In this document: in pieces, positions 14,526 to 40,155 of the stretch | How positions within the stretch are numbered: position 1 is the stretch's first letter | Layout of the letters: each line of letters starts with the position of its first letter | DNA from: Ectothiorhodospiraceae bacterium | Lineage (GTDB): Bacteria > Pseudomonadota > Gammaproteobacteria > GCA-002705445 > GCA-002716945 | Length of the DNA: 64,000 bases | NCBI GenBank assembly: GCA_019651095.1 | Contig: BOXR01000005.1 | Location: 4,992-68,991, forward strand | Direction of reading: 5' to 3' | Program-made: the position numbers and the translations under genes | The notes under the pieces: model-generated | The model's input: only the letters and a program-made list of their open reading frames with translations | Told to the model about the DNA's origin: nothing | Database searches by the model: none

Positions 14526-15558
14526 ATATTTGATATCTCCAGCCTTTCATAAACCTAGCCTTTTGATTTGATATAATAAACATTTCCATATCTCTTTTAT
14601 TGGCAATAATAGTTGGGTCTATCTTGAACTCATCTGAAACATAACTAAGTACCTCATTACACTTTTGCTCTATATCTTTCTTAGGATATAAGTTTTTATT
14701 TTTTATTTTTCTTTTCGAGCTCAATATTTTTTGAAGTATATCCTTTTCTGAACTTGTTAAGGTCTGTTTAATGTTTTCAATGATCTCTTGTGCTTTGTGC
14801 TCATTTGTTATCATGACTTTTATAAGTAAAGAGTCGCTCAGAATCCATCTTTTAGGAATATCATACTTAATTGATAATTTTTCTCTCCAAGATGCAAGTT
14901 TCTTCAACAAAGCAAGATCACTAGAATCAAAATATAGTGGATAATTTATTTTTTCCCATGCGTTGTCTGGTTCAATAATTATATTAGATTTTTCTAGCTC
15001 ATTATTTTGTTCTTCCTGGAACCAAGAATACCTGTTAATTATTTTTAAATTCTTTTCTAATTGATTTTTTATTTTAATCAAATATCTTACATCGTTTGCA
15101 GCATATTCTTTCTTTTCTTCACTAAGTGGTCGTTTTAACCAATCAGTTCTCCATGAGCCTTCCTTAATGTCAACATCACAAATATTTTTTACCAAAGCTG
15201 AATATCCAATATTTGATTTCTCAGATAAAAAATTATATGCAATTTGTGTATCAAAAACGTTTTTAGGAAATGATCCTAAATGTGAATACAGCGCTTCAAG
15301 GTCTTGTTTAGCAGAATGGATGATTTTTATTATTTTTGGATCAGAGGTTATTTTTGAAATGCCACTAATATCTTTTATTTTTTGTGGATCGATTAGATAA
15401 ATCTCCTCATTTGCTAGAGAAATTTGAATTAATGCAAGTATTGGTCTATAAGTAGACTCTCTTATGAATTCAGTATCTAAACCAATTTCTTTACAATCTT
15501 CGATTTTTGATAGAAGATTATGCAGTTTTTTGTCAGAATCAATTAAGATATTTGTCAT
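14506..15558 (-). CDS. rnd: Ribonuclease D.
   Basis: 3'-5' exonuclease domain ('GLDTEF', 'YAANDVRYL') plus HRDC-like C-terminus. 350 aa. Confidence 0.8.
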
Positions 15559-15605
15559 AATTATAAAAAATTTGATAATAACACAACTTCTGTAATGATA
15601 CTGTA

Positions 15606-16133
15606 ATGAAAAATAAATTTGTCCTTAAAAAATGTGAATTTATACAGTCTCCAAATTATGATGATAGGCCGAAAAATACTGTGGTTGATACAATAATCAT
15701 TCATTGCATAAGTCTGCCTGAGGGAAAGTATGATAACGATAATGTGAATTTATTATTCTTGAATAACTTGAACCGAACAGCTGATCCATCATTTGAATCA
15801 CTTGAAAGCCTCAAGGTTTCATCTCATATACTAATAAAAAGAACAGGTGAAATAATTCAATATGTTCCGTTTGATAAGCGTGCATGGCATGCGGGTAAGT
15901 CAGAATATGCTGAGAGAGAAAATTTTAATGATTTCTCAATAGGCATAGAGCTTCATGGTTCAGTGTCAGATGAATTTACTGATAATCAGTATTCCTCGTT
16001 AAAAAATTTAATTGGTGAGCTCAAACAAATATTTCCATCGATTAAAGATAGTAATATACTTGGACATAGCGAAATAGCACCCAAAAGGAAAAGTGATCCT
16101 GGGCCAAATTTTAAATGGGAAAAAATAAGATAA
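15606..16133 (+). CDS. ampD: 1,6-anhydro-N-acetylmuramyl-L-alanine amidase AmpD.
   Basis: Amidase_2 motifs ('AWHAG', 'IGIELHG', 'GHSEIAPKRKSDPG'). Followed by ampE. Confidence 0.85.
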   Translation: MKNKFVLKKCEFIQSPNYDDRPKNTVVDTIIIHCISLPEGKYDNDNVNLLFLNNLNRTADPSFESLESLKVSSHILIKRTGEIIQYVPFDKRAWHAGKSEYAERENFNDFSIGIELHGSVSDEFTDNQYSSLKNLIGELKQIFPSIKDSNILGHSEIAPKRKSDPGPNFKWEKIR

Positions 16134-16134
16134 G

Positions 16135-16989
16135 ATGTCTACAATTGCTATAATTATAATTGCACTCATAATAGAATATTTTTTCGATGATTTGAAAGAG
16201 TATAGGAAAGATAGTTTGCTACTAAGAGGGTTTAACTATTTTGAAAATAAAATAGATAAAGAAAAATACTCTAAGAATTCTATTTGTATCACATACACAT
16301 TGATTATATTAATTTTGTCAATGGCTCTAGTATCGATAGCTGATTACTTGTCTCATATAATTTACTTTGCTGTAAGTCTTGTAATCATGCTTTTTTGCTT
16401 GAGAACAAATCAATTTAATAGAGATATAGAAGAGCTTAAGATCAAATTAGAATTTAATAAAGAAAATATCGACAAAAGCGATTTATTTTCATTGTGTCCT
16501 AATCTTAAACAAACGCGTGCAAAATCTAACTTGAGTGTCCTTGTGATTAAAAATCTATTTTTTAACTCAATAAGGAATACTTTTGCTATTATCTTTCTAT
16601 TCTTACTTTTAGGTGCGCCTGCGGCTTTAACATATAAGTTATTAGATTTGATGATTTATTCTGAGACCTTCAAAGTCAATGCACAGACAAAGAATAATTT
16701 GAAAAAATACATTTACTTCATTGACTACATTCCAGTTAGACTGACTTCATACTGTTTATCTATTGTAAGTAATTATGATCGAGTTATAGATAGGATTAAT
16801 AGCCTTGAGCTGTCGAATAATCCTTACCTTAGTAACATAGAATATGTCAATCAAACTGGTGAATCAGTTTTTGATGCATCAAAAAGTGAATCAGATCAAA
16901 TAATACAAATTCAAAATATATTAGCAAGAACACTAATAGCTTGGTTAAGCGTGATCTTTCTTCTTGGAATCACTGGTGTTTTTATCTGA
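16135..16989 (+). CDS. ampE: AmpE inner-membrane protein (CobD/CbiB-related).
   Basis: 284-aa polytopic membrane protein immediately downstream of ampD, the canonical ampDE pair. Same length as E. coli AmpE. Confidence 0.65.
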
Positions 16990-17667
16990 AAATGAATAAT
17001 ATTTAAGACCTATTTGCACATCAGGTCTGTTATTTTTACTTCTCCAAATATTTGTATCCCTTAAAGAATAGACACAGCCGCAATATTCCTGCATATAAAA
17101 ATTCTCTGATTTTGATACAAGTAACATGTTTTCGGAGCCATTATTTTTTCTCCAATTATATGTCCAGTATTCAATGTTCTTGAATTGCATGGCTGCTTTA
17201 ATGCCAGATTCATTAATCTGATCCATATCCTTCCATCTTGAGATTCCCAAAGTACTTGAAATGATTGAGAAGCCATGTAGCTCAGCATATTGTGCTGTTT
17301 TAAGAAATCTCATATCAAAACATGTGGAGCATCTCTTGCCCCTCTCAGGTTCCCACTCCTGGCCCTTTGTTTGGTCAAACCAATTCCTCGTATCATAGTC
17401 ATCATCAATAAATGGTATTTTGTGTTTTCTCGCAAACTCTAAATTCTCATTTTTCCTCAAAAGATACTCTTCTCTTGGGTGAATATTTGGATTATAAAAA
17501 TATATTGTGTAATCTATGTTAGATTCTTTTAGGCGCAGCATAATGTCTCCTGAGCATGGAGCACAGCAGCTATGTAAAAGTAGTCTTTTATGGCCTTTGG
17601 GTAATTCTAGTTTGTTCATATTAAATATTAAAAAATCTACAGCTGTTATTATATATCTCTTCAGCAA
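16945..17667 (-). CDS. queH: Epoxyqueuosine reductase QueH (DUF208).
   Basis: 'HSCCAPCS' and 'CGCVYS' cysteine motifs. Probable start MNKLELP at ~17619. Confidence 0.75.
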
Positions 17668-18418
17668 GAATATTTTTATCTTTTTGCAAAATACTTGCTA
17701 CTGCATCTAGTACATAGATTAAGTTACTCGGTTCATTATACCTCTTATTTTCAATAGGGTAATTAAATGGCATTAAATATGGAGAATCTGTCTCTATCAT
17801 AAGCTTATCAGATGGCACGTAACTTATTAAATCATGGAGATGATACCCTCTATTTGGATCCGTTATCCAGCCAGTGATTCCAATGTAACATCCTAGATCC
17901 AAATAACTTGATAGACTCTTTTTATCACCAGTAAAACAGTGGACAACAATATCCTCTACTAGATGACTATATTCTTTTAAGAGTATAATAAAATCATCAT
18001 GAGCATCCCTTTCATGAAGGAACATTGGTAAATCAATTGATGTTGCAAGTTCAAGATGTTTTGTAAAACAATTTATTTGATCATTTTTACTTGAATAATT
18101 TCTTTTATAATCAAGTCCACACTCTCCAATAGCTTTAACATAGTCGTGTTCGCATAATTCGAGCATTTTATCGATATGACTATCTTTAAAATCCTTTGCA
18201 TTATGTGGATGAAAACCAACTGTTGTATATAAAAGGTCTGGCTCTCGATCAATCAGTTCTTTTGCTTGATAAGTGTCGTCTATATGCGATGAAGTGATGA
18301 TTATTTTACGAATATTATTTTCTTTTGATTTAGTGATAACTTCATTAAAATTTTTTGAAAGCTGACTATCCAGAAGATTTGCGCCAATATCAAATAGAGG
18401 CGTAACAGAATTAGCCAT
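17621..18418 (-). CDS. TatD-family metal-dependent hydrolase/DNase.
   Basis: TatD motifs ('GFHPHNA', 'ECGLDY', 'HCF'). 265 aa. Confidence 0.8.
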
Positions 18419-19301
18419 CTAGTTGTTTTAAAACTGATTCAACTGTTTCGCCAATCACTGAAGGATTCTTAGCTATTGTTATCCCTGCCGCTTTAAGAAT
18501 TTCTACTTTCTCAGCCGCAGATTCACCACCAGCACTTACAATGCCCTGCATGCCCATCCTTTTACCTTTGGGTGCTGTAAGACCTGCTATGTAAGCAATT
18601 ACAGGTTTCGATACATTCTTTTTAGCATATTCAGCTGCTTCTGCCTCTTGAGGGCCGCCTATTTCACCGATCATCAGTATAACTTTAGTCTCATCGTCAT
18701 CTTCAAATTTAGCTAAATGATCTCTAAACGCACTTCCGTTGATTGGGTCACCACCAATACCTACACTTGTAGATATACCAATTCCTAAATCTTTCATTTG
18801 TTGAGCTGCTTCATAACCAAGTGTACCTGAGCGTCCTATAACTCCAACATTTCCCTCTTTATATATATGACCTGGCATAATCCCTAGCATGCATTTCCCT
18901 GGACTTATTACACCTGCACAATTTGGTCCAACCATTGTCATTCTATCCTCAGCTTTATACCTTCTCATATATCTTTTTACTTTAATCATGTCATGAGCAG
19001 GGATTCCATCTGTTATTGCAACGAGAGTTTTAATTCCAGCGTCTGCAGCTTCCATTGCAGAATCAGCAGCAAATGCTGGCGGCACAAATAGAATACTTGC
19101 ATCGGCTCCAGTCTCTCTGACTGCATCCTTTACTGTGTTAAAAACTGGACGATCTAAATGTGTTTGACCTCCTTTGCCAGGTGTGACTCCGCCAACGACA
19201 TTTGTTCCGTACTCAATCATTTCCTCTGCATGAAAAGTACCGATCTTGCCGGTAAAACCTTGAATAATTATTTTAGATTCTTTAGTGATTAGTATTGCCA
19301 T
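18411..19301 (-). CDS. mtkB: Succinyl-CoA/malate-CoA ligase alpha subunit. Context favours malate thiokinase MtkB.
   Basis: CoA-binding and ligase-CoA domains ('GFTGKIG', 'GPNCAGVISP', phosphohistidine loop 'MGHAGAI'-like 'MQGIVSAGGES'). Adjacent to mtkA-like and mcl. Confidence 0.75.
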   Translation of the reverse strand: MAILITKESKIIIQGFTGKIGTFHAEEMIEYGTNVVGGVTPGKGGQTHLDRPVFNTVKDAVRETGADASILFVPPAFAADSAMEAADAGIKTLVAITDGIPAHDMIKVKRYMRRYKAEDRMTMVGPNCAGVISPGKCMLGIMPGHIYKEGNVGVIGRSGTLGYEAAQQMKDLGIGISTSVGIGGDPINGSAFRDHLAKFEDDDETKVILMIGEIGGPQEAEAAEYAKKNVSKPVIAYIAGLTAPKGKRMGMQGIVSAGGESAAEKVEILKAAGITIAKNPSVIGETVESVLKQLDG

Positions 19302-19307
19302 GGAAAT

Positions 19308-20477
19308 TTATGCTCCAAGCTCTTTTAGTGCTTTTACAGCTTTATTTGCTGCATCTTCCAGAGTGAAGGCTTCTGTATAGGTAATTTTACTGTCTTTAAG
19401 TATTTTTATACCTTCATCAACATTTGTGCCAGCCAACCTGATCACTAATGGTTGATTGATTGTTATTTGATTAAGTGCATCAACAATTCCTTGAGCTACC
19501 CAATCACATCTATTTATTCCAGCAAAGATATTTATTAAAATTACTTTTACTTTGGGGTCACCTGAAATCAGCTTAAAGGCTTTAACAAACTTTTCAGGAG
19601 TCGCTCCTCCGCCTACATCAAGGAAGTTTGCAGGTTGTCCACCAGCGAGCTGAATCATATCCATCGAAGCCATAGCTAGACCGGCCCGTTTATTATGTTG
19701 CCAATGTCGCCATCAAGTGGAATATAGTTAAGACCTCGATCTGCAGCATAAGTTTCTTTTGGATCTTCTTGAGATTTATCTCTAAGTTCAGCCAGTTCAG
19801 GATTTCTGTATAATGCATTGTCATCGAATGACATTTTGCAGTCTAGGGCGAGTACATGGTCATCCCCAGTTAAAACTAAAGGATTTATCTCAACCATAGT
19901 AGCGTCAGATGTACTGAAAGCTTTATACGCACCCAAGATAGCTTGAGCACATCTATTAATCGCTTTCGATTCCAAACCTAGTGCAAAAGCAATCTCCCTT
20001 GCCTGATAGCTTGCATTCCACTGCAGCTTCAATCCTTGTCTTAATAAGTGATTCAGGCTTTTCTTCTGCAATCTCTTCAACACTCATTCCTCCCTCAGAG
20101 GATGCAACAACCATGATGCTCTCTGTACTTCTGTCAAAAACCAATCCAAGATAAAATTCTTTTTTGATATCTGTGCCCTCTTCAACATAGATTCTTTGAA
20201 CTGTTTTACCTTCAGGACCTGTCTGATGGGTTACGAGCGTCTTTCCAAGTAGCTTATTAGCTGCATCAGATACTTCTTGTTCTGATTTACAAACAATTAT
20301 ACCGCCAGCTTTCCCTCTAGCTCCGGAGTGTATTTGTGCTTTGACTACCCATAGATCTCCTCCAAGTTCAGTCGCCCTATCTTTTGCATTCTCTGGGCTA
20401 TATGCAACTCCACCTTTAGGTATTGATACGCCAAATCTAGATAGTATTTCTTTTGCCTGATACTCGTGAATATTCAT
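19308..20477 (-). pseudogene. mtkA: Malate-CoA ligase / succinyl-CoA ligase beta subunit (ATP-grasp) split into 3 ORFs by 2 frameshifts.
   Basis: N-term '[28 protein letters not shown]', middle '[20 protein letters not shown]', C-term '[20 protein letters not shown]'. Strong collinearity with methylotroph MtkA as recalled from memory. Frame switches near 20045 and 19675. Confidence 0.75.
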
Positions 20478-21418
20478 TATTTTTTAGATTGTATAAGGTT
20501 GTCTATGTTGACAATATTTTCTGCCATTCGCTCAGATGCGGCATCGATCATTCTACCATCCAATTGAGCGGCTCCTTTCCCCTCTGCAGCAGCTTTTGCT
20601 AGTTCTTCAATAATTCTTTTTGCTTTATCAACTTCAGCTTGAGGTGGTGAGAATACATCATTTGCATGTTCGATTTGTGATGGATGAATTGCCCACTTAC
20701 CCTCTATTCCTATTGCAGCTCCACGTTTTGCAGCTTTAATATATCCATCGGGGTCTTTTATATCTCCAAATGGACCATCTATTGGTCTAAGACCGTAAGC
20801 TCGACATGTTGCTACTAACTTTGACAATCCATGATGCCATTGGTCACCTGGATAATCCGGATTCAAACCACCAATTACAACTGTTCTCGCTCTAAGGCTA
20901 GCTGCGTAATCGGCTACACCAAAGTGAAGCGCTTCTAGCCTGTCAGATGATTGAGCAATATCCTCAATATTTACCATGCCAAGTGCACTCTCAATTAGAC
21001 ACTCAAGGCCAACTTTATTCTTTAACTCTCTTTCTTGTTCGATTTGAGTGACCATACAATCAACCATATAGACATCATCTCTGACACCAACCTTCGGTAT
21101 TAGAAGTGTATCGATAAATTCACCCGCTTGAATCATCAACTCAACTACATCTCGATACATGTAATGCGTATCCAGGCCATTAATTCGAACAGAAATAGTT
21201 TTACCGTGACCTCGCCAATCTAAATCCTTGAGAGCGTTTATTACATTTTCCCTAGCAGTTACTTTATCGTTAGGAGATACGGCATCCTCTAAGTCTAGAA
21301 AAATATAATCCGCGTCTGAATTCAGAGCTTTTTCAAACATTTTTGGTGAGGAACCAGGTACGGCCAATTCGCTTCTTTGTAATCTTGTTTTTGCGCTTTT
21401 ATATGATGTGTGACTCAT
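20477..21418 (-). CDS. mcl: L-malyl-CoA/beta-methylmalyl-CoA lyase (HpcH/HpaI-CitE family).
   Basis: 313 aa. 'RSELAVPGS', 'FLDLEDAV', '[14 protein letters not shown]', '[13 protein letters not shown]' closely match Mcl1-type malyl-CoA lyase as recalled from memory. Confidence 0.75.
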
Positions 21419-21530
21419 AATCTATTATAATTTGACTTGATATACCCCTATATATTCGCTATAACTCGATAAGTTTTGAGGAAGTATATATGATAATTTT
21501 AAAATATGCAAAATACATGGATGTAAAGAG

Positions 21531-22443
21531 ATGACCAAATATGCTCTAGAAATTGAACAACTTAATAAAACTTATAGGAATGGTGTAAAGGCCCTAAAAG
21601 ACATAAATCTCAATGTCGAGGACGGAGATTTATTTGCATTTCTTGGTCCAAATGGGGCTGGTAAGTCTACAGTTATCGGAATTATTACAACACTTGTCAA
21701 CATCACATCAGGTACAGTAAAAGTATATGGAAAAGACATTCGTCAATTTCCTGAAGCAACAAAAAAAATGATTGGGGTTGTCCCACAAGAGTATAATCTT
21801 AATCAGTTTATTCCGATTCAAGAGACAATGATTAATATTGGTGGATATTTCGGTTTAACAAAAAAACAATCTATGAATAAAACTCAAGAGCTTTTTGAAG
21901 ACCTTGGTATATGGCATAAGAGAGAATGTACACCGAGAGAATTATCTGGCGGGATGAAAAGAAGACTACTTATAGCCAGAGCTTTAATACATAGTCCCAA
22001 ACTTCTAATTTTAGATGAGCCTACTGCAGGAGTTGATACGGAACTGAGACTTACAATGTGGGACTTTTTCAAAAAAATAAATAATGATGGTGTCACAATT
22101 ATATTAACAACTCATTATCTAGAAGAAGGCAGAGCGTTTATGTAAAAATTTATCAATCGTTCATAAAGGAGAAATTGTTCAGAACTCACCAATGAGAGAT
22201 ATAATCGCTTCAAAGAGAAAGCATACCTATATCATACGAACAGATTCAACTATTAATGATATAAATGCATTTGGTGACAATATTATAAGTATAGATAATA
22301 ATTCATATGAATTGACTGTAGATAATAAAGTTTCAATTTCGGAAATAATTAATTCATTCAATAACAACAAAATAAATGTAATTGAAATACTAAGTAAACG
22401 AAATAAACTAGAGGAACTATTTATGGAGCTTACTCAAGAATGA
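21531..22443 (+). pseudogene. ABC-2-type transporter ATP-binding protein. One frameshift near 22133 splits it into 204-aa and 83-aa pieces.
   Basis: Walker A 'GPNGAGKST', signature 'LSGGMKRR', Walker B 'ILDEPTAGVD'. The C-terminal domain continues as 'RLCKNLSIVHKGEIV' in another frame. Confidence 0.65.
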
Positions 22444-23213
22444 TAAAACAGCTATACATAACACAACTGACAACGATCTTCAGAAAAGAATTCTTTCGAT
22501 GGTCACGTATTTGGATACAGACTATCTTACCATCAGTAATTACAATTTTTTTATACATAACTATTTTTGGGAATTTCATTGGATCACGTTTGGGAGATAT
22601 CAGTGGGCTGCCTTATATACAATTCATACTGCCAGGTTTGATCATAATGCCTATCATTTCAAATTCATACATGAACGTCGTTGGTTCTTTTTATAGTGGT
22701 AGGTTTCAAAAAAGTGTTGAGGAATTATTTGTATCCCCACTTTCAAGTCACGTAATTTTGATCGGGTATGTATTGGGTGGTGTATCAAGAGCTTTTGTAG
22801 TGGGCTTCGCGGTATATCTAGTCTCACTAAGTTTCACAAATATACCAATACATAATGTATATCTTGCTATTTTTCTAACACTTCTTGTTAGTTTTTTATT
22901 TTCCATCCTTGGATTTATTAATGCTGTTTATGCAAAAAGTTTTGATGATATAAATATTATTCCAACGTTTGTTTTAACTCCGCTTACATATCTAGGTGGA
23001 ACCTTCTACTCAATATATAACCTTCCTGAAGCTTGGCAAACAGTATCATTGTTTAATCCTATAGCTTATATGGTAAGCGCATTTAGGTATGCATTTATTG
23101 GTATAGAAGAAATGAATACATTTAATGCGATAGTAATGATGTTCATATTAATCTTTTTCATGTATTCTCTAGCTATATACCTTTTAAATAGAGGTATTGG
23201 AGTAAAAAACTAA
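22440..23213 (+). CDS. ABC-2 family transporter permease.
   Basis: 257 aa with 6 TM helices. Translationally coupled to the upstream ATPase. Confidence 0.7.
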   Translation: MIKQLYITQLTTIFRKEFFRWSRIWIQTILPSVITIFLYITIFGNFIGSRLGDISGLPYIQFILPGLIIMPIISNSYMNVVGSFYSGRFQKSVEELFVSPLSSHVILIGYVLGGVSRAFVVGFAVYLVSLSFTNIPIHNVYLAIFLTLLVSFLFSILGFINAVYAKSFDDINIIPTFVLTPLTYLGGTFYSIYNLPEAWQTVSLFNPIAYMVSAFRYAFIGIEEMNTFNAIVMMFILIFFMYSLAIYLLNRGIGVKN

Positions 23214-23335
23214 CTCTCACGAGGTTGGGAAAGTCAGTGAATACATAATCTGACACTGCCCCCGCAACGGTGAACAACAGTCCGAATGCCAACGAGGTGA
23301 GACCTACTTTAGCGGTGGTGCTATGAAAGAAATCT
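23210..23335 (+). promoter_or_regulatory. Cobalamin (B12) riboswitch candidate in the leader of a btuB-like gene.
   Basis: GC-rich island in an AT-rich background: 'GGGAAAGTCAGTGAATACATAATCTGACACTGCCCCCGCAACGGTGAACAACAGTCCGAATGCC...GGTGGTGC' resembles the E. coli btuB leader core (GGGAAtCCAGTG..GAAtCTG..ACTGCC..GCAaCGGTaA). Sits ~200 nt upstream of a TonB-dependent receptor. Confidence 0.6.
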
Positions 23336-23535
23336 TGATCATATAGTCATATAAACTTTTACTTAAACGCTTTACTGTTTTTTAGCAGATGCATTGTCGT
23401 ATCTTATTTAAGTAATAATGACCTATTCAAATATGAAGTACGTTGTGCATTTAATTCATGCGCTTTGGGTAATGAATATATAGCTTTAGGATGACGCTGT
23501 TGCCCTAAATTTTTTAATCTAGATGAGGATATATT

Positions 23536-25308
23536 ATGAACTTTAGAAAAATTATTTTATTAAACGTCCTATTTACATTTTTCAGTCTCACACAGGCAAG
23601 TGAAACATTAAACCCAATTGTAGTAGGCAATTCAATCTCACCAATAGATATCCATACTTCGCCTGCATCTATGGAAGTGTTCACTAGCTCAGATATAGAA
23701 AGAGAGGCTTCGCTGACATGCAAGAATTATTGAGCTCTATAAGCTCTATAAATATAACTTCTAACGGAGGAATTGGACAATTAACATCTATTTTTACAAG
23801 AGGCACTGAGAGTAATCATACAAAGATTATACTTGATGGGGTTGAGCTAAATCCAGGTACACTTGCTCTAGCACCAATACAAAACATTTCAATTGACTCT
23901 ATTGACAGGATAGAAATTATAAAAGGATCATCATCAGCGCTTCATGGAGCTAGAACTATTGGTGGTATTATCAACATAAAGACTAAAGAGAATTCAAATT
24001 CAATAAAAATATCGACTGGATCATGGTCGACCAATACTACATCGTTGAGTCAAAATTATAATCTAAATGGATTCAAGATGAATATTAATGCTAACAGAAA
24101 AGAATCGAAATCTAAGACTGCGGGTCGTTATTCTAATAAAAGGCATGCATATAATACAGATAACATAAGTATCGGTTTGAGCAAGGAGATAAATGATTAT
24201 GTTTTTCTACAAAGCTATACAACTCGAATGGAAATACTCAATACGACAGCTTTGGTACTAATGAGAATCAGGACCGTGATGACTACTTTTACAACTTCGG
24301 GCTTAAGAAATTTATTAATGAAGACATTTTTGAAATAAAACTTGTAGGTTCTCAAAATAGGATTATCCAGAAAAAGGTGGGTTCAAACGACTTCACGGAT
24401 ACTCTCAGGGATATTTATGATTTTTCCTACACAAAAGTAGGGAGTAATGTTGTACAAAAAATTGGATTTATTTATACAAAAGAGCATATGAGTGAACTTG
24501 TATATGGTGGAACAGCCTATGAAAGTCGATTCACTGCACAACACAATAATAAAGAATATTTTTATCAGAATGAAATGTCATATCCATCATATCGATTGAA
24601 CTTCGGGGCAAGACATACAGATCACTCACAAGCTGGACATTTTACTTCTGGGAACTTTGGAGTATCTTTACTTTCAGATAATAATGTATATTCATTTAAT
24701 ATTACCAAATCCTATAGACCAGCAGATGCAACAGACCTTTATGCGACTGATGGATCTGGTGATGCAACACATAAACCTGAAGAGTCGTTCTCTTATGAAT
24801 TTGGAGTCAAAAGATATGTAAATGAGAATACATTTATCAGAGGAACGGCTTTTAAAACGAGATTGAAAAATCTAATTGAGGCGGACATTAATTCCCAGAT
24901 ATATCTATCTGATGCATTGATAACGGGTTTAGAAATGAGAGTACAATCAAACTACGTCCTTTCATATATGATATCGGTTACACATATATGAATCCAGAAG
25001 ATACAAAAAATAATCAACCCTTAACAAAACGAAGCAAGCATAAGCTGAATGCAGATGTAATTTATAATTTTAAACCAAATAGTTCTCTGAGATTTAATAT
25101 TTTAGCTGAAGGTACTAGAAAAGCGTCAGCATTTGCAGATATAAATTTAGGCTCATATTATATAGCCAATGTAAACTATAGGACACGACTTGATACAGGT
25201 ACAATCTCTTTAAGCATGAAGAATATTTTCGATAGACCTTACAGGACGTCTCATGGATACGATACTCTGGATAGGTCACTCTTTGTTACATATACGTTAG
25301 ATTATTGA
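23536..25308 (+). pseudogene. btuB: TonB-dependent outer-membrane receptor, putatively BtuB-like, in 4 pieces with at least 3 frameshifts.
   Basis: Signal peptide plus TonB box (23536..), plug domain 'ILDGVELNPG...IEIIKGSSSALHGARTIGGIINIKTK', beta-barrel fragments, C-terminal 'RSLFVTYTLDY'. Total span ~590 codons. Confidence 0.65.
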
Positions 25309-25323
25309 TAGAATGGCATCTAA

Positions 25324-25848
25324 ATGAATAGAACTATCTTTACTGAATTATCGATATTCTTACTTCTCATTGTAAGTAAATTATCAAGTACTTTCATAAA
25401 CATATCGCCTTTCTTAGCAGTGATTATAATCGGATCGTATTTTATTCACAGTAAGCATAGATTATTGTTAATGATCTTTGCCGCACAACTTTTCTCTGAT
25501 TTAGTCTATGGCTTACATGTATCTAATTTATCAATCTATCTGTCTTACTTCATTATAGTTTTAGTTATCTATAGAAACGAAGTAATATACTCGATAACCA
25601 AAAGTATGTTGTATGGGCTGCAAGCTAACATAATATTTTTTATTGTCACTAACTTCGGTCACTACTTAGCATATAATAGTGTCTATACCACTAGTCTTTT
25701 AGCTGAGACTTACAGTCGAGGATTATTGTTCGGTATTAATCTACTACTCTCAACGATTGTTTTTATCATAATCTTCCATGCCTTACTAGCTGTCAGCAGA
25801 AAACAGCTAGTAAAGTCAAGGAGTACGAGGGGAGAGCCTAGAACTTGA
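25324..25848 (+). CDS. Hypothetical membrane protein (5 TM) downstream of the btuB remnant.
   Basis: 174-aa hydrophobic ORF with no recognisable motif. Possibly cofactor-transport related, from context only. Confidence 0.3.
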
Positions 25849-27044
25849 GTTGACCACCGGTTTTATATTCAGTAACACGTGTCTCAAAGAAATTTTTCTC
25901 TTTATTTAAGTCCATCATTTCAGACATCCATTCGAAAGGATTTGTTGCGCCTGGATATTGATGAGGCAGCCCAATACTCTCAAACCTTCTGTTTGCAATG
26001 AACTTGATATATTCCTCAAACTTTTGAGCGTCCATCCCTAACATAGGTTTTGGCATAGTATCTCGACCGTATTGAGTCTCCAGCTCAACTCCTTTGGTGA
26101 TCAGATTAATCATTTCTTGTTGAAACTCCTCAGTCCATAAGGTCGGATTTTCATTTTTGATCTGATTAATTACATCAATTCCAAAGTTCATATGCATAGA
26201 CTCGTCTCTTAAAATGTATTGAAACTGTTGCGACACACCTGTTAATTTATTTCTCCTTCCAAGTGACAAGATCTGTGTGAATCCCACATAGAAGAAGATG
26301 CCTTCGAAGACGACATAAAAAGCAATTAGGTCTCTTAAGAGCCTCTGATTGTCTTTATGTGTCCCTGTCTTAAATGTAGGGTCACCAAGACTCTGAGTAA
26401 ATGGAAGAGCCCACTCTGCTTTAGTTGCAACTGCTGGAAGCTCTCGATACATGTTAAATATCCTTGCTTCATCTAATCCTAGTGATTGAACACAGTATTG
26501 ATACGCGTGAGTATGTATTGCCTCTTCGAATGCTTGTCTCAATAAATATTGTCTACACTCAGGATTGGTTATATGTTTGTAAACTGCTAAGACTAGATTA
26601 TTTGCAACCAAAGAGTCAGCTGTTGAGAAGAATCCAAGGTTTCTCTCAACCATTTCTCTTTCCTCTGGTCTAAGTGCTTGAGGGTCGTTCCAGCATTTGA
26701 TGTCATCATGCATAGGTATCTCTTCAGGCATCCAGTGATTCGCTGAGCCGTCTAAATATTTTGCCATGCCCACTTATACTTAAAGGGTACGAGTTGATTT
26801 AAGTCAGCTCGACAATTAATAATCGCCTTATCATCAACTTGTATTCGCTTAGCGCCATGTTCGATGTTTTCCATTCCTGTGAACCAACGCCTGTTGATTT
26901 AGGCTCAGGCATATGGTCAACATTTGAATCAGCTATGTGGTCATTACTGATTGATTCTATATTTTGTGCTTCATGCACTTTTTTCTCTGGCACTATGTCT
27001 GGTTTACTTAGTGCGTCATTTATTGGGTCGTCCCAGTTATACAT
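25838..27044 (-). CDS. nrdB: Class Ia ribonucleotide reductase beta subunit NrdB, Pseudomonas-type. The catalytic core 25838..26773 is intact. The N-terminal extension carries 2 frameshifts.
   Basis: Core 'NHWMPEEI...[16 protein letters not shown]...[12 protein letters not shown]...[10 protein letters not shown]'. Upstream frames give '[25 protein letters not shown]', which matches the Pseudomonas-type N-extension. Frame switches near 26775 and ~26880. Confidence 0.8.
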
Positions 27045-27184
27045 AATTATCTCCTTTTAATTTTTCTCAGCTTCTCTTAAAGCTTGAATTCTTTCGTTTT
27101 CATATTGTTTAAGTTTCATAATCACCAATATAGTCGCAGCGACTGCAATTAAATAGATTACAAAATCTGGTATATATATATTCA

Positions 27185-30040
27185 TTATTGACATGCCTCA
27201 CAATCTGGATCATCTATTAGACACTGTTTAACTTCATCATCATTTGACTTAACAGCATTTAAGTTTGAGCCGCTAGTATCTGACGTGCTTTTCTCTACAT
27301 GAGTCGCACCCAACGAGCGTAGGTAATATGTAGTTTTAAGCCCTCTTATCCAAGCAAGCTTATATGCGCTATCAAGTTTTTTACCATCAGAATCAGGTAT
27401 ATATAAATTTAGTGATTGTGATTGATCGATCCACTTTTGTCTTCGAGCGGCTGCTTCAACCAACCATCTAGCATCTATCTCAAAGCATGTTGAATAGATA
27501 GCTTTTAAATCGTCTGGAACTCGATTGATAGGCTGTAGTTGTCCATCAAAATATTTCAGATCTTTTATCATAACTTCATCCCACAAATCGCGTGATTTCA
27601 AATCATTAATTAAGTAAGGATTGATCACAGTAAATTCACCCGATAGATTAGATTTAACATATAAGTTTTGATAAGTTGGCTCTATCGATTGTGAGACACC
27701 ACAAATATTTGAAATAGTTGCAGTAGGAGCTATAGCAAGTGTATTAGAATTTCTCATGCCATTGGCTTTTATTTTGTCTCTTAGTTCATCCCATTTAAGA
27801 CTTTCATCTAGATTAACATCTAAATATTTACCACGAATCTTCTTAAGTTTCTTAAGACTATCTATCGGCAGTATTCCCTGGCTCCATAATGAACCATCAA
27901 ATGATTCATATGCACCTCGCTCTTTTGCAAGTTCCATTGATGCTTCGATTGCAAAGTAACTAACGTACTCCATACTCTTATCAGCAAAATCAACTGCCTC
28001 TTCGGATTCATATGGAACACGAATTTTATAAAGAGCATCCTGGAATCCCATAATGCCCATGCCAACTGGTCGATGCTTTAGGTTTGAATTTTTTGCTTTA
28101 TCAACACTGTAATAATTATATTCAATAACATTATCAAGCATTCTCATTGCAGTAGAGATTGTTGTCTTTAATTTTTTAGTATTTATTTTTCCATCGTCAG
28201 TGATGTGAGCGGCTAAATTAACAGAGCCTAAATTGCATACTGCTATTTCGTCTTTAGATGTATTGAGTGTTATCTCAGTACACAGATTAGAGGAATGAAC
28301 TACGCCTTTGTGCTGTTGTGGCGATCTAATATTGCATGGGTCTTTGAATGTAATCCATGGGTGCCCTGTCTCAAAGAGCATGCTCAAGATTTTTCTCCAT
28401 ATATCTACTGCATTAACAGTTTTAAAGTTTTTTATGCCACCAGTTTTAGCTAAATCTTCATATTCGGTATATTTTTCCTCAAATTCTAGTCCGTACAAAT
28501 CATGTAAATCAGGTGTATCTGAAGGTGAGAACAGTGTCCATTCTTCATTAGCGTGAACACGTTTCATAAATAGATCTGGAATCCAATTAGCAGTGTTCAT
28601 GTCATGAGTTCTTCTTCTCTCATCACCTGTATTTTTTCTAAGCTCTAGAAACTGTTCTATGTCTAAGTGCCAAGTTTCTAAATAAGCGCACATCGCACCT
28701 TTTCTTTTACCGCCTTGATTGACAGCTACAGCAGTGTCATTAGCAACTTTAAGAAATGGAATGACTCCCTGACTTTTTCCGTTAGTGCCTTCGATGTAAG
28801 AACCAAGAGCCCTCACCTGTGACCAGTCGTTTCCTAAACCGCCTGCAAACTTTGAAAGCATAGCATCGTCGCTTATTCCTTCAAATATTCCTCGTAGATC
28901 ATCGGGGATAGTAGAAAGATAGCATGATGACAATTGAGGTTTCAGTGTAGCTGAGTTAAACAACGTAGGAGTACTAGACATAAAATCAAACGAGGACAAT
29001 AATTTATAAAATTCGATTGTTCTTGCTTCACGGTTATCTTCATTGATTGCTAGACCCATTGCTACTCTCATAAAGAAAGCCTGAGACAATTCAAATCTTG
29101 TTTCGTTATGATGAATGAAGTATCTGTCATAAAGTGTTTGAAGCCCAAGATAGGTAAACTGCATATCTCTTGTTAGGTCAATATTCTTTGCCAGTAGCTC
29201 GATATCATAATTGAGTAATTCAGGATCGAGATGCTTGAGTTCAACGCCTTTTTTAATATAACTAGTAAAATATTCAGAGTATGATTTATTCATTGCATTC
29301 ATACTTAGATCATTTATGTCAAGCCCAAGAAATCCATAAGCCTCTTCCGCCATAGAATTGGATAATAATCTTGCGAGGACATAAGAATAGTTAGGATCTT
29401 TTTCAATGAGTGGTCGTACAGAAATTAAAATAGAGTCAGAGAGATCAGATTTTTTTATCCCATCATAAATATTTTTATCAATTGTCTCAAAAATTAATTC
29501 TTCCGAGACATCTTTAATATCTAAACAGCTCTCAGAAATGAGATTTCTTAGTTTGGTAAAATCGATTGGTGTTGATGAGCCATCATCGAGTATCATATTT
29601 TTCGATATCGGCATGTCATCTGTTTGTTCAACGCCAAGCTTTCTTGCTTTTGCTCTGTCTTCTCTATATATAACGTATGCCCTTGCAACATCTTGGTAGC
29701 CAGCGCGCATAATTCCCTAACTCAACTTGATCTTGTATATCTTCGATATGGACAACACCTCCGTTTGGAAATCTTCTTCTTATGGTTTGATCAACTTTAT
29801 CAGTAAGATTTTCAACTTCATTGTGAATTCTGGATGATGCAGCAGCACTGCTGCCTTCGACACTAAGAAAGCCTTGGTCATAGCTACAACAATCTTATGC
29901 GGATCGTAAGCTGTAACCTTTCCGTTTCTTCTCATCACTCTATATCTGCCTGGCACTGGCTCAACATGCAACGGTTCTCAGCTACTGTGGCGTTTAAAGG
30001 CGTTTCTATATTAAGTTCTTCTACTTTTTTTGACATAATT
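27185..30040 (-). CDS. nrdA: Class Ia ribonucleotide reductase alpha subunit NrdA. The 841-aa body is intact (27185..29710). The first N-terminal ATP-cone (~110 codons, 29710..30040) is split over 3 frames.
   Basis: Body with RNR large-subunit motifs. Upstream, 'MSKKVEELNIETPL..', 'VMRRNGKVTAYDPHKIVVAMTKA' and 'VVHIEDIQDQVELGNYA' are ATP-cone sequence in three different frames, ending just before 'MRAGYQDVARAYVIYRED'. Confidence 0.8.
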
Positions 30041-30105
30041 TTTCTCTGGTGTGAGAGCTATGACATAATTATATCACCAAATGTGGTGGTTTGATAACAA
30101 TAAAA

Positions 30106-30121
30106 ACACTATATGTTGTGT
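30106..30121. promoter_or_regulatory. NrdR-box (ACACTATATGTTGTGT) upstream of nrdAB.
   Basis: 15/16 match to the NrdR box consensus acaCwAtATaTwGtgt, ~65 bp upstream of the nrdA ATP-cone start. A weaker second half-site lies at ~30167-30182. Confidence 0.5.
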
Positions 30122-30202
30122 TTAAGTCTGTGATTTGATTGTGGATAACTTGTGAATTTGTTGAATTCACTTGTATATAAGATTATTGAAATATACTAAT
30201 GC

Positions 30203-31569
30203 TTACATTAGAAAAGTTGCAATTCCCAGTAAAGATACGAACCCGACAACATCTGTAATAGTTGTCAAGATCACACCTCCGGCGAGGGCAGGATCGATAT
30301 CTAGTTTCTCTAAAATAAGTGGAAGACTGACCCCGCTGATAGCGCCAATGATAAGATTGATCATAATAGCAGCTGCAATTACACCTCCGAGAAAGACACT
30401 GTCAAACCAAAAATAGACAATGGCTGCAATAACGCCAGACCAAATTATTCCATTCAGTAATCCGATTGCAGATTCTTTAAGGATTAAAAGTTTTGAGTTA
30501 GATGAACCTATTTGATCAAGTGCTTGTGCCCTGATAACGAGTGCAAGACTTTGACTTCCAGCTATACCTCCCATACTAGCAACAATTGGCATCAATATCG
30601 CTAGTGCTACAACTTTCTCAATCGTTGCTTCAAAATTCCAATAGCAGCAGCTGCAAGCAGTGCTGTTAAAAAATTAGCACCGAGCCAAAGTGTACGTCTT
30701 TTAGTACTTTGTATGACTGGTGCAAATATATCATCGTCTTTTTTTAGACCCGCCATATTCAATACACTTTCATCAACCTCTTCTCTGATGACATCAACAA
30801 CATCATCGACTGTGATCCTACCAAGTAAGAACCCTTGACTATCTACTACGGCTGCTGAGACAAGATCGGCATTTTCAAATCTTCTCGATACTTCATGTTC
30901 TCCAAGATCTGGATCTATTGGATCATCATCCTTTTGCATGATTTGAAAAAAGTATTTTGATGGATCTGCCACGAGAACATCTTTTAGAGACACAAAACCA
31001 TGATACATATTAATTCTGTCAGTCACAAAAATTTTATCAGTTTGATCTGGCAAGCTTTTCATACGTCTTAGATAGTGAAGAAGGACATCAACTGTAACAT
31101 TGCTTCTAATTGTAATTGTATCAGTATTCATTAGCCCGCCTGCTGTGCCATCTTCAAAGGACAATACCTTTTCAAGCCTTTCTTGATTTTGCTTAGTTAA
31201 ACTTTTTAATGCTTTTCTTGTTAAGTGATCAGGAAGTGATTGAATGATATCTGCCAAATCATCGGTATCTAATTTCTCAGCTATTTTGACAAGCCCTTCT
31301 GTTCCATCTCTATCGATAAGTTCATCGATAAGATACTCTCTTACTTCATCATTGAGCTCAGCAAGAGTCTCACCTTTATTTTCATCACTTACTAATGTCC
31401 AGAGAAGATCTCTTCTGTTTCTTGGCGTACTTTCAATTACATCTGCAATCTCAGATGGATAGAGAGAATTTAATAAATTTTTAGCTTGGATGACAGCACC
31501 GCTATCAAGAACTTCTGAGAGTTGATCGAGAGTGACAGTATTGTCTTTGTGAATGCTTTCTGCAGGCAT
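30203..31569 (-). pseudogene. mgtE: Magnesium transporter MgtE split by one frameshift between the cytosolic N/CBS domains (320 aa) and the TM domain (130 aa).
   Basis: N-terminal ORF carries MgtE_N and CBS sequence. The downstream ORF 'MPIVASMGGIAGSQS...' is the MgtE TM domain in another frame. Junction at ~30600. Confidence 0.65.
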
Positions 31570-31622
31570 TTTAACTGACCTCTCTTGTTTAGTTGATTTA
31601 TTACATATTCCTGCCTATAAGA

Positions 31623-31658
31623 TACCACAAAAGGGACTAGGTTGTTAACCTGTCCCTC
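31623..31658 (-). terminator. Rho-independent terminator after the porin gene (minus strand).
   Basis: Hairpin GGGAC-T-AGGTT-GTT-AACCT-G-TCCC on the minus strand, followed by TTTTGTGG. Confidence 0.55.
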
Positions 31659-31687
31659 GGGGTTATATATATATGAGAATCAATTCT

Positions 31688-31754
31688 GGTAGTAGCTAGC
31701 TGAGAAAATTAATTGCTTGTTAACGTCAAATTAATAAGGGAGCTAGCTACCACC
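31688..31754. repeat. Long inverted repeat: 14-nt arms GGTAGTAGCTAGCT / AGCTAGCTACCACC separated by ~39 nt.
   Basis: Seen directly in sequence. One mismatch between arms. Lies between the porin stop (31768) and its terminator. Confidence 0.5.
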
Positions 31755-31767
31755 CATCCATTAAGGA

Positions 31768-32862
31768 TTAGAAGTCATGTCTTAGACCAAGTATATATGT
31801 ACGGTAATCTGTATCACCTGCTGCAGATTCTCCATCGTAATCAGAAAGACCCGCATAAAGTCTACTAGTTTTAGACAGTTTGTACTGCATACCTAAACTG
31901 TATGCATCACCGCCTGCATTAGCAATTGTGTCATGATCAGATTCAGACATTGTATACATTAAGGTCATTGGTCCAGTCTTATAGGTTATTCCATACCAAT
32001 CGACTTCACCATTACCGGTTGTCTTGAACATACTTGTATCAAGTTCAACATCTTCATGCATGTACCATACTTTTACCTTGTTATCACCAAGTTTGGTATT
32101 GTAAGTAAGTGTATATTTTCTATTCATTTCATCAGCTGATTCATCATGATTATAGGCATGCACAACATCAAAACCTTTAATTAAAAAGTTTTTGTATTCG
32201 ACACCATATCCGATGTCACCTTTAGAATTAACTTTTGCATCGCCATCATGAGCCGTCATGCCTTTAATGACAGCAAATCTTAAGTTGCCTGATTTAAGTT
32301 CGTAGAAAGCAGAACCTCTCCAGTAACTAGAGTGAGACATAGTACCTGCTGAGATACCGTTTGTATCCCTCATTTGTGCAAGTGAATCATGCAAAATGTC
32401 ATGTTTAGCCAAATATTTATATGGTGACTCCATTGATCCAAACTTAAATTGACCATAAGGGGTTAACATTCCCAGCCAACCTTGTTTCAGACTAAATGGA
32501 TTTGATTTTTCAGAATTACTAACTTTAAGACCAGCAGCATCGCCATCACCAATATCTATAGCCCATTCAACTTTATAGTTGACGGCATAGCCATTTCCAA
32601 TAGCGCTTTTGCCTTTAAAACCGATACGCCCCATACCTTCATCATCAAAGATTGCAGTTTGAGCATTACTTCCATCAGTCTTCTCATTACTGTACTGAGC
32701 CCAGAGTCGTCCATAAAGTTTCGCACTGGAGCCTTTTTTAAGAGCTGGAGATGCGACTGCCTCGTTTGGTTTGATGACAGAATTTGTCATAGCACCACCC
32801 GTGAAACCGACTAAAGGAACTGCAAGTAAAGCAAATACAAGATATTTTTGTAATTGTTTCAT
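31768..32862 (-). CDS. Outer-membrane porin, intact. Possibly a phosphate-starvation porin given the Pho context.
   Basis: 364 aa with signal peptide, alternating amphipathic beta-strand pattern and C-terminal 'GLRHDF'. Pho-box-like 11-bp repeats upstream. Confidence 0.7.
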   Translation of the reverse strand: MKQLQKYLVFALLAVPLVGFTGGAMTNSVIKPNEAVASPALKKGSSAKLYGRLWAQYSNEKTDGSNAQTAIFDDEGMGRIGFKGKSAIGNGYAVNYKVEWAIDIGDGDAAGLKVSNSEKSNPFSLKQGWLGMLTPYGQFKFGSMESPYKYLAKHDILHDSLAQMRDTNGISAGTMSHSSYWRGSAFYELKSGNLRFAVIKGMTAHDGDAKVNSKGDIGYGVEYKNFLIKGFDVVHAYNHDESADEMNRKYTLTYNTKLGDNKVKVWYMHEDVELDTSMFKTTGNGEVDWYGITYKTGPMTLMYTMSESDHDTIANAGGDAYSLGMQYKLSKTSRLYAGLSDYDGESAAGDTDYRTYILGLRHDF

Positions 32863-32950
32863 ATTTCCTCTTTTAAATAACGTTCAACAGTTCCATTTAA
32901 GGAACAAATTGATATTACAAAATCAAAGTACAAGTTTTTGATAAAGAAAT

Positions 32951-32983
32951 ATGAAACATTTATTTATGAATTATTACAGTTAT
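32951..32983 (-). promoter_or_regulatory. Pho-box-like direct repeats upstream of the porin.
   Basis: Minus-strand reading 'CTGTAATAATT CATAAATAAAT GTTTCATATTT' has 11-bp periodicity, ~90-120 bp upstream of the porin start. Confidence 0.3.
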
Positions 32984-33009
32984 ATGAAGAGTCTCATTTA
33001 AGATTTAGT

Positions 33010-33420
33010 TTACAAATTATTTAATTTATCACCGATATCATAATAGATTCTTAATAATTCTTTTTTTCTCTCTTGAAAGTCATGTACTTTAGCTGGATCA
33101 GGATATGACCAATGAAGTATCTTCGAGCAATTCATAAATACTGGGCAACTTTCTTTTGCGTTATCACAGACTGTGATACCAATATCAAAACTATATTCCT
33201 TATTGTTTATGAAATGACTTAAATTTTTTGATTCAAGTTTATCTAGAGGATAATTAATGTCTCTTGCAATATCCAAAGCAGCATCATTGATTTCCCCTAT
33301 AGGATGAGATCCAGCTGAGAATCCAATGAATTTATTTTCGGTCAGCGTATTAGCTGCGATTTCACCCATTATTGATCTTGCAGAATTACCTGTACAAATG
33401 AATATTAATTTAGTACTCAT
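33010..33420 (-). CDS. arsC: LMW-PTP-fold arsenate reductase (thioredoxin-coupled ArsC family) / low-molecular-weight phosphatase.
   Basis: P-loop 'CTGNSARS' at the N-terminus plus a 'VCDNAKESCP' Cys pair, typical of ArsC-type LMW-PTP proteins. 136 aa. Confidence 0.6.
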   Translation of the reverse strand: MSTKLIFICTGNSARSIMGEIAANTLTENKFIGFSAGSHPIGEINDAALDIARDINYPLDKLESKNLSHFINNKEYSFDIGITVCDNAKESCPVFMNCSKILHWSYPDPAKVHDFQERKKELLRIYYDIGDKLNNL

Positions 33421-33507: not shown

Positions 33508-34194
33508 CTATGACTGTGAATCTAGACTATAACCTGATGACCTTATAGTTCTAATCACTTTACATTCTTCCGTGCTACTTAAAGCTTTTCTTAGCCTTCT
33601 AATATGCACATCAATCGTTCTATCTGTCACATAAACATTAGTGCCCCAAACAGAGTCTAAGATTTGTTGTCTTGAATATACTCTGCCAGGATTTCTCATT
33701 AAAAATTCTAGAATTCTATACTCTCTGGGCCCAAGTTTTGCTTCTTGGTCACAACAATAAACTCGATGTGTCCCTGTATCCATTTTTATATTCCCAAAAG
33801 TTAATACACTATTGTTTGAGTCAGTATTTGCCCTTCTCAAAAGAGCCTTAATTCGTGCAATAAGTTCTGCTGGACTAAAAGGTTTTGTTATATAATCATC
33901 ACATCCCATATCAAAACCAGACAAAAGGTCCTCTTCCTCACCTTTCGCAGTTAACATTATTATGGGAATATTTTTTAAATCTTTTTTGCTCCTTACGAAT
34001 TTACAAATCTCTGTTCCCGCTATATCAGGCAACATCCAGTCTAAAAGTATTAAGTCCGGATTAACTTTTTGTAGTTGCATCATTCCTTCATATCCATTGA
34101 TAGAATGTTCAAATTTAAAGCCAGCAGAGGTAATATTATATTCTAAGAGTGATACGAGAGCCTCTTCATCTTCAATAGAAAATATTGTTGTCAT
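33508..34194 (-). CDS. phoB: Phosphate regulon response regulator PhoB.
   Basis: REC domain ('LLDWMLPD', 'MLTAKGEE') plus OmpR/PhoB winged helix. Immediately downstream of phoU and pstB. Confidence 0.85.
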   Translation of the reverse strand: MTTIFSIEDEEALVSLLEYNITSAGFKFEHSINGYEGMMQLQKVNPDLILLDWMLPDIAGTEICKFVRSKKDLKNIPIIMLTAKGEEEDLLSGFDMGCDDYITKPFSPAELIARIKALLRRANTDSNNSVLTFGNIKMDTGTHRVYCCDQEAKLGPREYRILEFLMRNPGRVYSRQQILDSVWGTNVYVTDRTIDVHIRRLRKALSSTEECKVIRTIRSSGYSLDSQS

Positions 34195-34910: not shown

Positions 34911-34940
34911 GATTAAAATTATAACTTATTTTAATAAAAA

Positions 34941-35705: not shown

Positions 35706-35711
35706 ATGTTT

Positions 35712-38283: not shown

Positions 38284-38341
38284 AATCTACTATGTAAACT
38301 TGATAATAAGGCTCGAATGTTACATTTATGTTAAATGTGTC

Positions 38342-38998: not shown

Positions 38999-39038
38999 CT
39001 ACTAGTGAGGTGACACATATCAAACAACATGAGTATTA

Positions 39039-40079: not shown

Positions 40080-40121
40080 GTTGTCTCCATATTTAATTTT
40101 ATGCAACTATTTAACAAGAAA

Positions 40122-40151
40122 GTGATGAAATAGAAATTAAGCTTTTATGAC
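40122..40151 (-). promoter_or_regulatory. Pho box candidate upstream of pstS.
   Basis: Minus-strand 'TGTCATAAAAG CTTAATTTCTA TTTCATCAC': TCAT elements spaced 22 bp apart (2x11), ~45 bp upstream of the pstS start, with a TAAAAT -10-like element between. Confidence 0.4.
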
Positions 40152-40155
40152 AAAT

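Follow-up and report, generated by a model that had tools for sequence, protein, structure and literature searches.

Does this DNA carry a vitamin B12 riboswitch that has outlived the gene under its control, or a working B12-uptake operon whose receptor gene was misread? The question is raised by a locus at positions 23211-25848 of a 64,000-nucleotide (nt) stretch of contig BOXR01000005.1 from an Ectothiorhodospiraceae bacterium (hereafter, the window), where a cobalamin riboswitch is followed on the same strand by a TonB-dependent receptor gene broken into four frames and by a gene for a small membrane protein of the DUF6580 family. A sequence-only reading of the locus had offered two answers, namely that B12 import is being lost while its regulatory RNA persists, or that the receptor is intact and the breaks are errors. 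With a probability of about 85%, we read the locus as an operon for B12 uptake that works and is repressed by cobalamin, in a marine gammaproteobacterium that is abundant but uncultured. In this reading, a class-II cobalamin riboswitch controls the genes for an outer-membrane receptor resembling BtuB and for a DUF6580 protein of the inner membrane, and the breaks are artefactual.

Frame breaks in the receptor gene

The receptor gene extends over 23536-25308 on the plus strand. Its division into four frames was confirmed: the pieces at 23536-23701, 23702-24201, 24202-24952 and 24953-25308 are separated by three shifts in the same direction and lie in three different frames. One base is missing in the window at each of the positions 23702, 24202 and 24953, and it is present there in 10-13 independent sequences, none of which shares the deletion. 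When the three bases are restored, an open reading frame (ORF) of 591 amino acids (aa) with no internal stop is obtained, and 580 of its 592 positions (stop included) are identical to those of an intact homologue.

The comparison was based on nine related loci found through a one-genome-per-species scan, together with metagenome contigs. The closest relative, L001, is the single-cell genome of an uncultured marine gammaproteobacterium and is 95.3% identical to the window at the nucleotide level over 19.9 kb (window 13542-33404). Five long metagenome contigs that carry the permease of the window, encoded just upstream of the riboswitch, are 97.4-98.6% identical to the window. The receptors of the genome relatives are 68-96% identical to that of the window. 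The receptor gene is a single 591-aa ORF in L001. Seven genome relatives, L001 included, and four of the five metagenome contigs have an intact copy of 586-591 aa; the contig of L008 stops within the gene. Between the window and L001 (95% identical), the receptor gene has 8, 5 and 45 substitutions at codon positions 1, 2 and 3, respectively, and 43 synonymous to 13 non-synonymous codon differences. This is much as in the neighbouring genes; substitutions were overwhelmingly synonymous in every gene tested (30:0 for sucC and 24:2 for nrdB, for example). The pattern shows that the receptor is under purifying selection.

Private indels, that is, sites where one base is missing or extra in the window only, were called against all six sequences of a close set (95-98.6% nucleotide identity). 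They were found in sucC (19685, 20010 and 20018), the ABC ATPase gene (22126), the spacer of the riboswitch leader (one-base deletions at 23429, 23454 and 23457), the receptor gene (the three sites given above), nrdB (26759 and 26880), nrdA (29718, 29864 and 29978) and mgtE (30632). The rate is approximately 1 per kb over 19.2 kb, and the receptor gene is not enriched in them (approximately 1.7 expected, 3 observed, probability of 3 or more approximately 0.25). Further private indels in the 43.8-64 kb part of the window split the genes for an NAD-binding dehydrogenase, fur, a DUF3501 protein and a CCG-domain protein, and none were found across 12.4-18.5 kb.

Because the deletions are private, are no denser in the receptor gene than in its neighbours and are accompanied by lesions in housekeeping genes, and because the receptor is under purifying selection, the breaks are very likely a sequence-quality artefact and not a loss of B12 import. 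The likeliest source of the indels is errors in the consensus sequence, such as long-read assemblies retain when their polishing is incomplete. Thus, the first answer of the sequence-only reading is not supported, with deletions that are private and not concentrated in the receptor gene, with nrdA, nrdB and sucC broken too and with a 43:13 ratio of substitutions. The second answer is favoured by the private deletions, the restored 591-aa ORF and the same substitution ratio. The impression of a regulatory RNA that survives the loss of its gene is thus best put down to sequence error, and any pseudogene called in a record with approximately one indel per kb in patches needs to be checked against relatives.

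Most of the private indels are one-base deletions, and they are patchy, lying at 18543-30632, 56306-59331 and 63599-63856 of the window. Pfam coverage also indicated that asnB (7252-8601), a methyltransferase gene (9371-9998) and pstA (35712-36934) are truncated or split; this is probably the same indel problem, although there is no close relative for those stretches. Contigs L012, L013, L039 and L040 (ENA ERZ285480xx, with names ending in '_pilon') come from the same population as the window and have private indels and split genes of their own, at sites that differ from those of the window. The receptor in L012 is 518 aa long, nrdA in L013 encodes 925 aa, and L040 has split leuS, yhdP and tldD genes. 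Long-read assemblies with imperfect polishing are thus a frequent source of sequence for this population.

Identity of the receptor

The stitched receptor had its best NCBIfam matches in TIGR01779 (TonB-B12; E-value 4.7e-58, profile positions 15-609 of 614) and PRK10641 (BtuB), and models of siderophore and haem receptors matched its N-terminal plug domain only. A similar result was obtained for structures: the best match of the intact homologue in the Protein Data Bank (PDB) was E. coli BtuB over the full length (query residues 44-583, E-value 2.7e-25), and CirA, FepA, FecA and others matched the plug only. The suggestion of a btuB-like receptor is therefore borne out, as full-length matches were to BtuB models and structures solely, and a siderophore receptor outside the BtuB clade was not what the searches returned.

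Class-II cobalamin riboswitch

The whole window was scanned with cmscan against Rfam, with the curated gathering scores as thresholds. A class-II cobalamin riboswitch aptamer (RF01689, AdoCbl-II) was found at 23211-23299 on the plus strand with 52.2 bits (gathering score 36.5), an E-value of 7.7e-10 and coverage of model positions 1-81 of 81. Nothing else in Rfam, tRNA and rRNA included, reached its gathering score at window positions 1-64000. The element had been taken for a relative of the btuB-leader B12 riboswitch. A cobalamin covariance model does match it, so that the cobalamin riboswitch is real, but the family is not the classic RF00174: this assignment was rejected, the best match of the cobalamin clan here being RF01689 ('AdoCbl-variant').

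The RF01689 match recurs with equal scores in all eight genome relatives, and the aptamer lies upstream of the receptor in all relatives; in the window, it is 237 nt upstream on the same strand. The aptamer is nearly invariant while the receptor proteins drift to 68-70% identity. Its GC content is 51%, compared with 34% for the window. The block that is invariant in the relatives reaches approximately position 23325 and is thus approximately 115 nt long with 50% GC, against 34% in the window and 30% in the rest of the leader, which agrees with the earlier description of a GC-rich element of approximately 120 nt.

The first three bases of the aptamer (TAA) are also the stop codon with which the ABC-2 permease gene upstream ends. 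In the region 23150-23213, the first aptamer helix starts on this stop codon and leaves no intergenic room for a promoter, and a search of the plus strand at 22900-23211 gave no consensus sigma-70 site. With no intergenic space before the aptamer, transcription must start within the permease gene, unless the leader is co-transcribed with the ABC transporter genes.

Predicted expression platform and putative leader ORF

The conserved stretch continues past the Rfam model as AGACC(U/A)AC(U/A)U-UAGC-GG(U/C)GGU-GCUA-UG. This predicted expression platform (23300-23325, plus strand) is invariant in the relatives except for three positions and consists of a conserved 10-nt linker, J1/13 (23300-23309), and a 14-nt hairpin, P13 (UAGC-GGUGGU-GCUA, 23310-23323), which is indicated by both RNAalifold and conservation. 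The sequence GGUGGUG in and beside the P13 loop is Shine-Dalgarno-like and close to the extended GGAGGUG, and an AUG (23323-23325) stands directly at the end of the hairpin. The conserved structure predicted by RNAalifold comprises the aptamer and the P13 hairpin only. Judging by base complementarity, the CCCC of the aptamer loop L5 (23260-23263) could pair with GG(U/C)GG of the P13 loop, leaving the sole variable base unpaired; the L5 and P13 regions are invariant, so there is no covariation between them.

The AUG that P13 would gate opens not the receptor gene but a 7-codon upstream ORF (uORF), ATG AAA GAA ATC TTG ATC ATA TAG (MKEILII*, 23323-23346, plus strand), and the receptor start lies approximately 190 nt downstream. 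Among 36 related sequences, the uORF occurs in 11 distinct nucleotide versions. Its codons 4-6 vary synonymously only (ATC/ATA/ATT, TTG/TTA/CTA/CTG and ATC/ATT/ATA, respectively), the stop is always codon 8 and conservation drops off immediately beyond it. This synonymous-only variation, together with the fixed stop and the collapse of conservation after it, leads us to read MKEILII* as a putative translated leader ORF. The spacer that separates the uORF from the receptor gene (23347-23535, plus strand) is poorly conserved and has 30% GC, and beyond approximately 23350 the leader diverges nearly to randomness among the relatives.

DUF6580 membrane protein

The third gene of the operon (25324-25848, plus strand) starts 15 nt past the receptor stop codon and encodes a membrane protein of 174 aa, which was attributed to DUF6580 (Pfam PF20221; 58.9 bits against a threshold of 27, E-value 9.3e-16, model positions 6-158 of 162). 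It is probably co-transcribed with the receptor gene. Wherever the sequence of a relative extends far enough, DUF6580 is the next gene after the receptor; the distance is 14-17 nt in most of them, with a 4-nt overlap in one ORF call (L003). The protein had been described as uncharacterised with five transmembrane segments. It is a membrane protein, but the AlphaFold2 model built from an 81-sequence alignment has six helices (mean predicted local distance difference test score, pLDDT, of 93.2), and the family is classified. NCBI names it 'putative transport protein', and a profile search returned 2060 clusters. No mention of DUF6580 or PF20221 was found in the literature that could be searched. 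The family is thus already catalogued, and none of the papers found shows a function for it.

The best PDB matches of the model found by Foldseek were S-components of energy-coupling factor (ECF) transporters for vitamins and metals, namely CbiM, PanT, ThiT and FolT. These matches are weak (TM-score not above 0.62, probability not above 0.91, all E-values 1.2 or higher), and an S-component-like fold is suggestive only. No PDB chain, BtuM included, was found with the single sequence or with the 81-sequence DUF6580 profile at E-values up to 10. Membership in the BtuM family was rejected, as the window protein contains no cysteine and has no detectable homology to any PDB chain. In the motif GLxxCYxxAIPFF, the cysteine that is present in most DUF6580 members is replaced by threonine in the window protein (approximately residue 128, window position approximately 25700). 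Invariant or near-invariant residues of the family are D59, N26, G63, Y72, F105, F106, N110, Y121, P135 and F136.

Gene context is the strongest evidence on the role of this protein. Seven distant DUF6580 members (25-30% identity) located on long contigs were sampled. In five of the seven loci, an RF00174 riboswitch and the gene for a TonB-dependent receptor are part of the same operon as the DUF6580 gene, in the order RF00174, receptor, DUF6580 in four loci and RF00174, DUF6580, receptor in one; another is only beside a BtuF/FhuD-type binding protein and the last has no B12 signal. That two riboswitch classes control the same gene pair in unrelated lineages speaks for membership of DUF6580 in the B12 uptake regulon, and the surmise that the downstream membrane protein is B12-associated is thus backed by these distant lineages. 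Its most likely role, to judge by gene context and fold, is that of an inner-membrane transporter of corrinoids or B12, analogous to BtuM.

In two of the distant loci, L044 (5293-7511) and L045 (2962-7526), the neighbours of the DUF6580 gene are a Diphthami_syn_2-like gene and a gene for a BtuF/FhuD-type periplasmic binding protein (Peripla_BP_2); BtuC and BtuD are not encoded nearby, and L045 also has the RF00174 riboswitch and a TonB-dependent receptor. Loci of this type hint that the binding protein may hand its substrate to DUF6580.

Gene neighbourhood

The gene order is kept in L001 and six further genome relatives and reads sucC, HpcH/HpaI lyase, ABC ATPase, ABC-2 permease, riboswitch, receptor, DUF6580, nrdB and nrdA, with the last two genes on the strand opposite to that of the riboswitch, receptor and DUF6580. 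Between nrdB and nrdA there is a small ORF of 45 aa (27057-27194, minus strand) with a single hydrophobic helix, and a 42-aa counterpart was called in all five close metagenome contigs. A phosphate-regulon cluster is located at 33508-41379 and contains phoB, phoU, pstB, pstA, pstC, a MIP channel gene, pstS and phoR. The permease protein of the window was found, residue for residue, in 951 metagenome data blocks, TARA Oceans samples included.

Alternative explanations

A genuine pseudogene that arose very recently in one lineage, with B12 import lost and the riboswitch and DUF6580 persisting, would account for three frame-disrupting deletions that are physically in the record, two of them outside homopolymers and so less typical of some sequencing error modes, and would suit a window in which no B12-dependent enzyme was seen. 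However, none of the 10-13 related sequences has the deletions, the indel load of the receptor gene is no higher than that of its neighbours, and nrdA, nrdB and sucC bear the same kind of lesion. There are also no nonsense substitutions or larger deletions, three bases suffice to restore the ORF, and the 43:13 ratio speaks of constraint and not of relaxed selection, which together make such a pseudogene quite improbable. Decay of the whole genome in a mutator or reductive lineage, with many genes truly frameshifted, would cover the other genes as well, since at least 11 genes in approximately 41 kb of comparable sequence are disrupted by private single-base indels and further truncated genes lie elsewhere in the window. 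Yet the broken genes include nrdA, nrdB and sucC with no back-up copies visible, and substitutions are overwhelmingly synonymous in all genes tested. Moreover, the lesions are 1-2-base indels only, patchy and missing from 12.4-18.5 kb, and long-read contigs of the same population show a like symptom at other sites; genome decay is thus very improbable. Synthesis of the receptor from the broken frames through programmed ribosomal frameshifting or transcriptional slippage would be in keeping with three shifts in the same direction and with the T run at 24202, but it has next to no probability: the relatives encode the receptor in a single frame with the extra base at each site, which leaves no conserved signal, the contexts of 23702 and 24953 are not slippery, and unrelated genes and the non-coding leader have the same indels.

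Another explanation accepts an intact receptor and concerns its substrate. The receptor and DUF6580 might import a siderophore or another corrinoid-like compound, with the riboswitch coupling this import to B12 status. In its favour, the receptor scores below the curated BtuB equivalog thresholds, the substrate of DUF6580 is not demonstrated and two of the seven distant DUF6580 loci have no riboswitch. Against it, the full-length receptor matches solely BtuB models and structures, and two cobalamin riboswitch classes govern receptor-DUF6580 pairs in unrelated lineages; such a pattern is typical of the transport genes of the B12 regulon. We consider a non-cobalamin substrate unlikely.

A number of findings weigh against a working B12-uptake operon with artefactual breaks. 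The receptor scored 197.2 bits with TIGR01779, for which the curated equivalog cut-off is 599.7, and 159.5 bits with NF007926 (cut-off 836); because both scores are far below the cut-offs, the protein is best labelled as BtuB-like and not as BtuB proper. No btuCDF, btuR or B12-dependent enzyme genes were found among the annotated genes of the 64-kb window, to which this search was confined, and the ribonucleotide reductase adjoining the operon is of the B12-independent class I. Many of the indels, for example those at 23702 and 24953, lie outside long homopolymers; the exact DUF6580 protein of the window is nowhere else on record, so there is no second copy of the exact strain; and some of the indels may be real private mutations, as they were judged from assembled sequence alone. 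In the leader, nothing was found that would link the uORF to the receptor: no intrinsic terminator was predicted on the plus strand, and neither the alignment nor RNAalifold gave any conserved structure for the 190-nt spacer. Long-range pairing of the uORF with the region of the receptor start, which translation of the uORF could melt and at which single-sequence folds hinted in some lineages, was rejected, as the duplex energies were no better than those for shuffled starts or other spacer windows (0.19-0.93 of the shuffles were at least as good).

Proposed mechanism and its implications

In the working operon that we favour, cobalamin would bind the aptamer, and by analogy with the env8HyCbl riboswitch the ligand is likely to be hydroxo- or methyl-cobalamin. 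Binding would stabilise a kissing interaction of CCCC in L5 with GGUGGU in the loop of P13, as the sequence and the same analogy suggest, and this interaction would hide the Shine-Dalgarno-like sequence and the AUG of the 7-codon uORF. Ribosome loading on the leader would then be lost and the expression of the receptor and DUF6580 would go down. The route may be termination by Rho within the 190-nt spacer or faster decay of the mRNA there, a guess that is the weakest step of the scheme. When B12 is scarce, the receptor would carry cobalamin across the outer membrane and DUF6580, given its gene context and fold, would carry it across the inner membrane.

A riboswitch ahead of a btuB operon is a textbook arrangement, and in this respect the finding flagged by the sequence-only reading is ordinary. 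What the arrangement of riboswitch, receptor and DUF6580 adds is that it nominates a widespread DUF family for the missing inner-membrane step of B12 uptake, in a lineage that recurs in hundreds of marine metagenome data blocks. A broader proposal can be put forward tentatively, at somewhat less than even odds. DUF6580 would be an uncharacterised family of inner-membrane corrinoid transporters with an S-component-like fold and no ECF module, which partners BtuB-type receptors across distant phyla and under both riboswitch classes. Its SAR86-like version is cysteine-free and would thus have a chemistry unlike that of BtuM, and in this marine clade the riboswitch would gate a conserved 7-codon leader ORF 190 nt before the receptor.

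Comparison with known systems

The E. coli btuB gene likewise has a cobalamin riboswitch upstream of a TonB-dependent B12 receptor of approximately 590-600 aa, to which the receptor studied here aligns over its full length (E-value 2.7e-25). The window differs in that its aptamer belongs to RF01689 and not to RF00174, its receptor is below the BtuB cut-offs and the partner of the receptor is DUF6580 and not btuCDF.

BtuB is present and BtuCDF absent in many Gram-negative B12 auxotrophs, and BtuM of Thiobacillus denitrificans, a solitary S-component-type B12 transporter, was proposed as a BtuCDF replacement (PMC6072759). Like BtuM, the DUF6580 protein is a small membrane protein (approximately 20 kDa) with six predicted helices, is encoded beside a btuB-type gene in a Gram-negative bacterium and has a modelled fold that may resemble ECF S-components. 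However, the BtuM family has an invariant and essential cobalt-ligating cysteine, Cys80 (PMC6072759), whereas the window protein lacks cysteine, and the DUF6580 profile of 81 sequences gave no BtuM match at E-values up to 10.

The closest counterpart of the riboswitch is env8HyCbl, in which L13 carries the ribosome-binding site and a cobalamin-stabilised L5-L13 kissing loop blocks ribosome loading and lowers mRNA abundance; this riboswitch prefers cobalamins with small upper ligands, namely hydroxo- and methyl-cobalamin (PMC5028336). Both belong to RF01689 and have a compact aptamer, a short linker, a 14-nt P13, which in the window is a predicted hairpin with a Shine-Dalgarno-like loop, and a start codon next to it. 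They differ in that the gated AUG of the window opens a 7-codon ORF with the regulated gene 190 nt further on, and in that the L13 loop of the window is GGUGGU, while L13 of the env8HyCbl family is described with two unpaired purines (PMC5028336).

Short leader ORFs under riboswitch control are known from Mycobacterium tuberculosis. In the ppe2 B12 switch, translation of a uORF is required for downstream expression and feeds PPE2 by termination-reinitiation (PMC11260477), and in the pe20 Mbox, ribosome loading on the uORF is reported to guard the transcript from Rho-dependent termination or decay (PMC12810186). The likeness to the window lies in a translational expression platform over a short conserved uORF whose translation sets, or in the window would set, the expression of the downstream operon. 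Termination-reinitiation as in ppe2 is unlikely across the 190 nt of the window, and a role of Rho as in pe20 is a guess for this leader, whose host is a marine gammaproteobacterium and whose aptamer is RF01689. The conserved 7-codon leader ORF, if it is translated as its variation suggests, would extend riboswitch-gated uORF control from mycobacteria to marine gammaproteobacteria.

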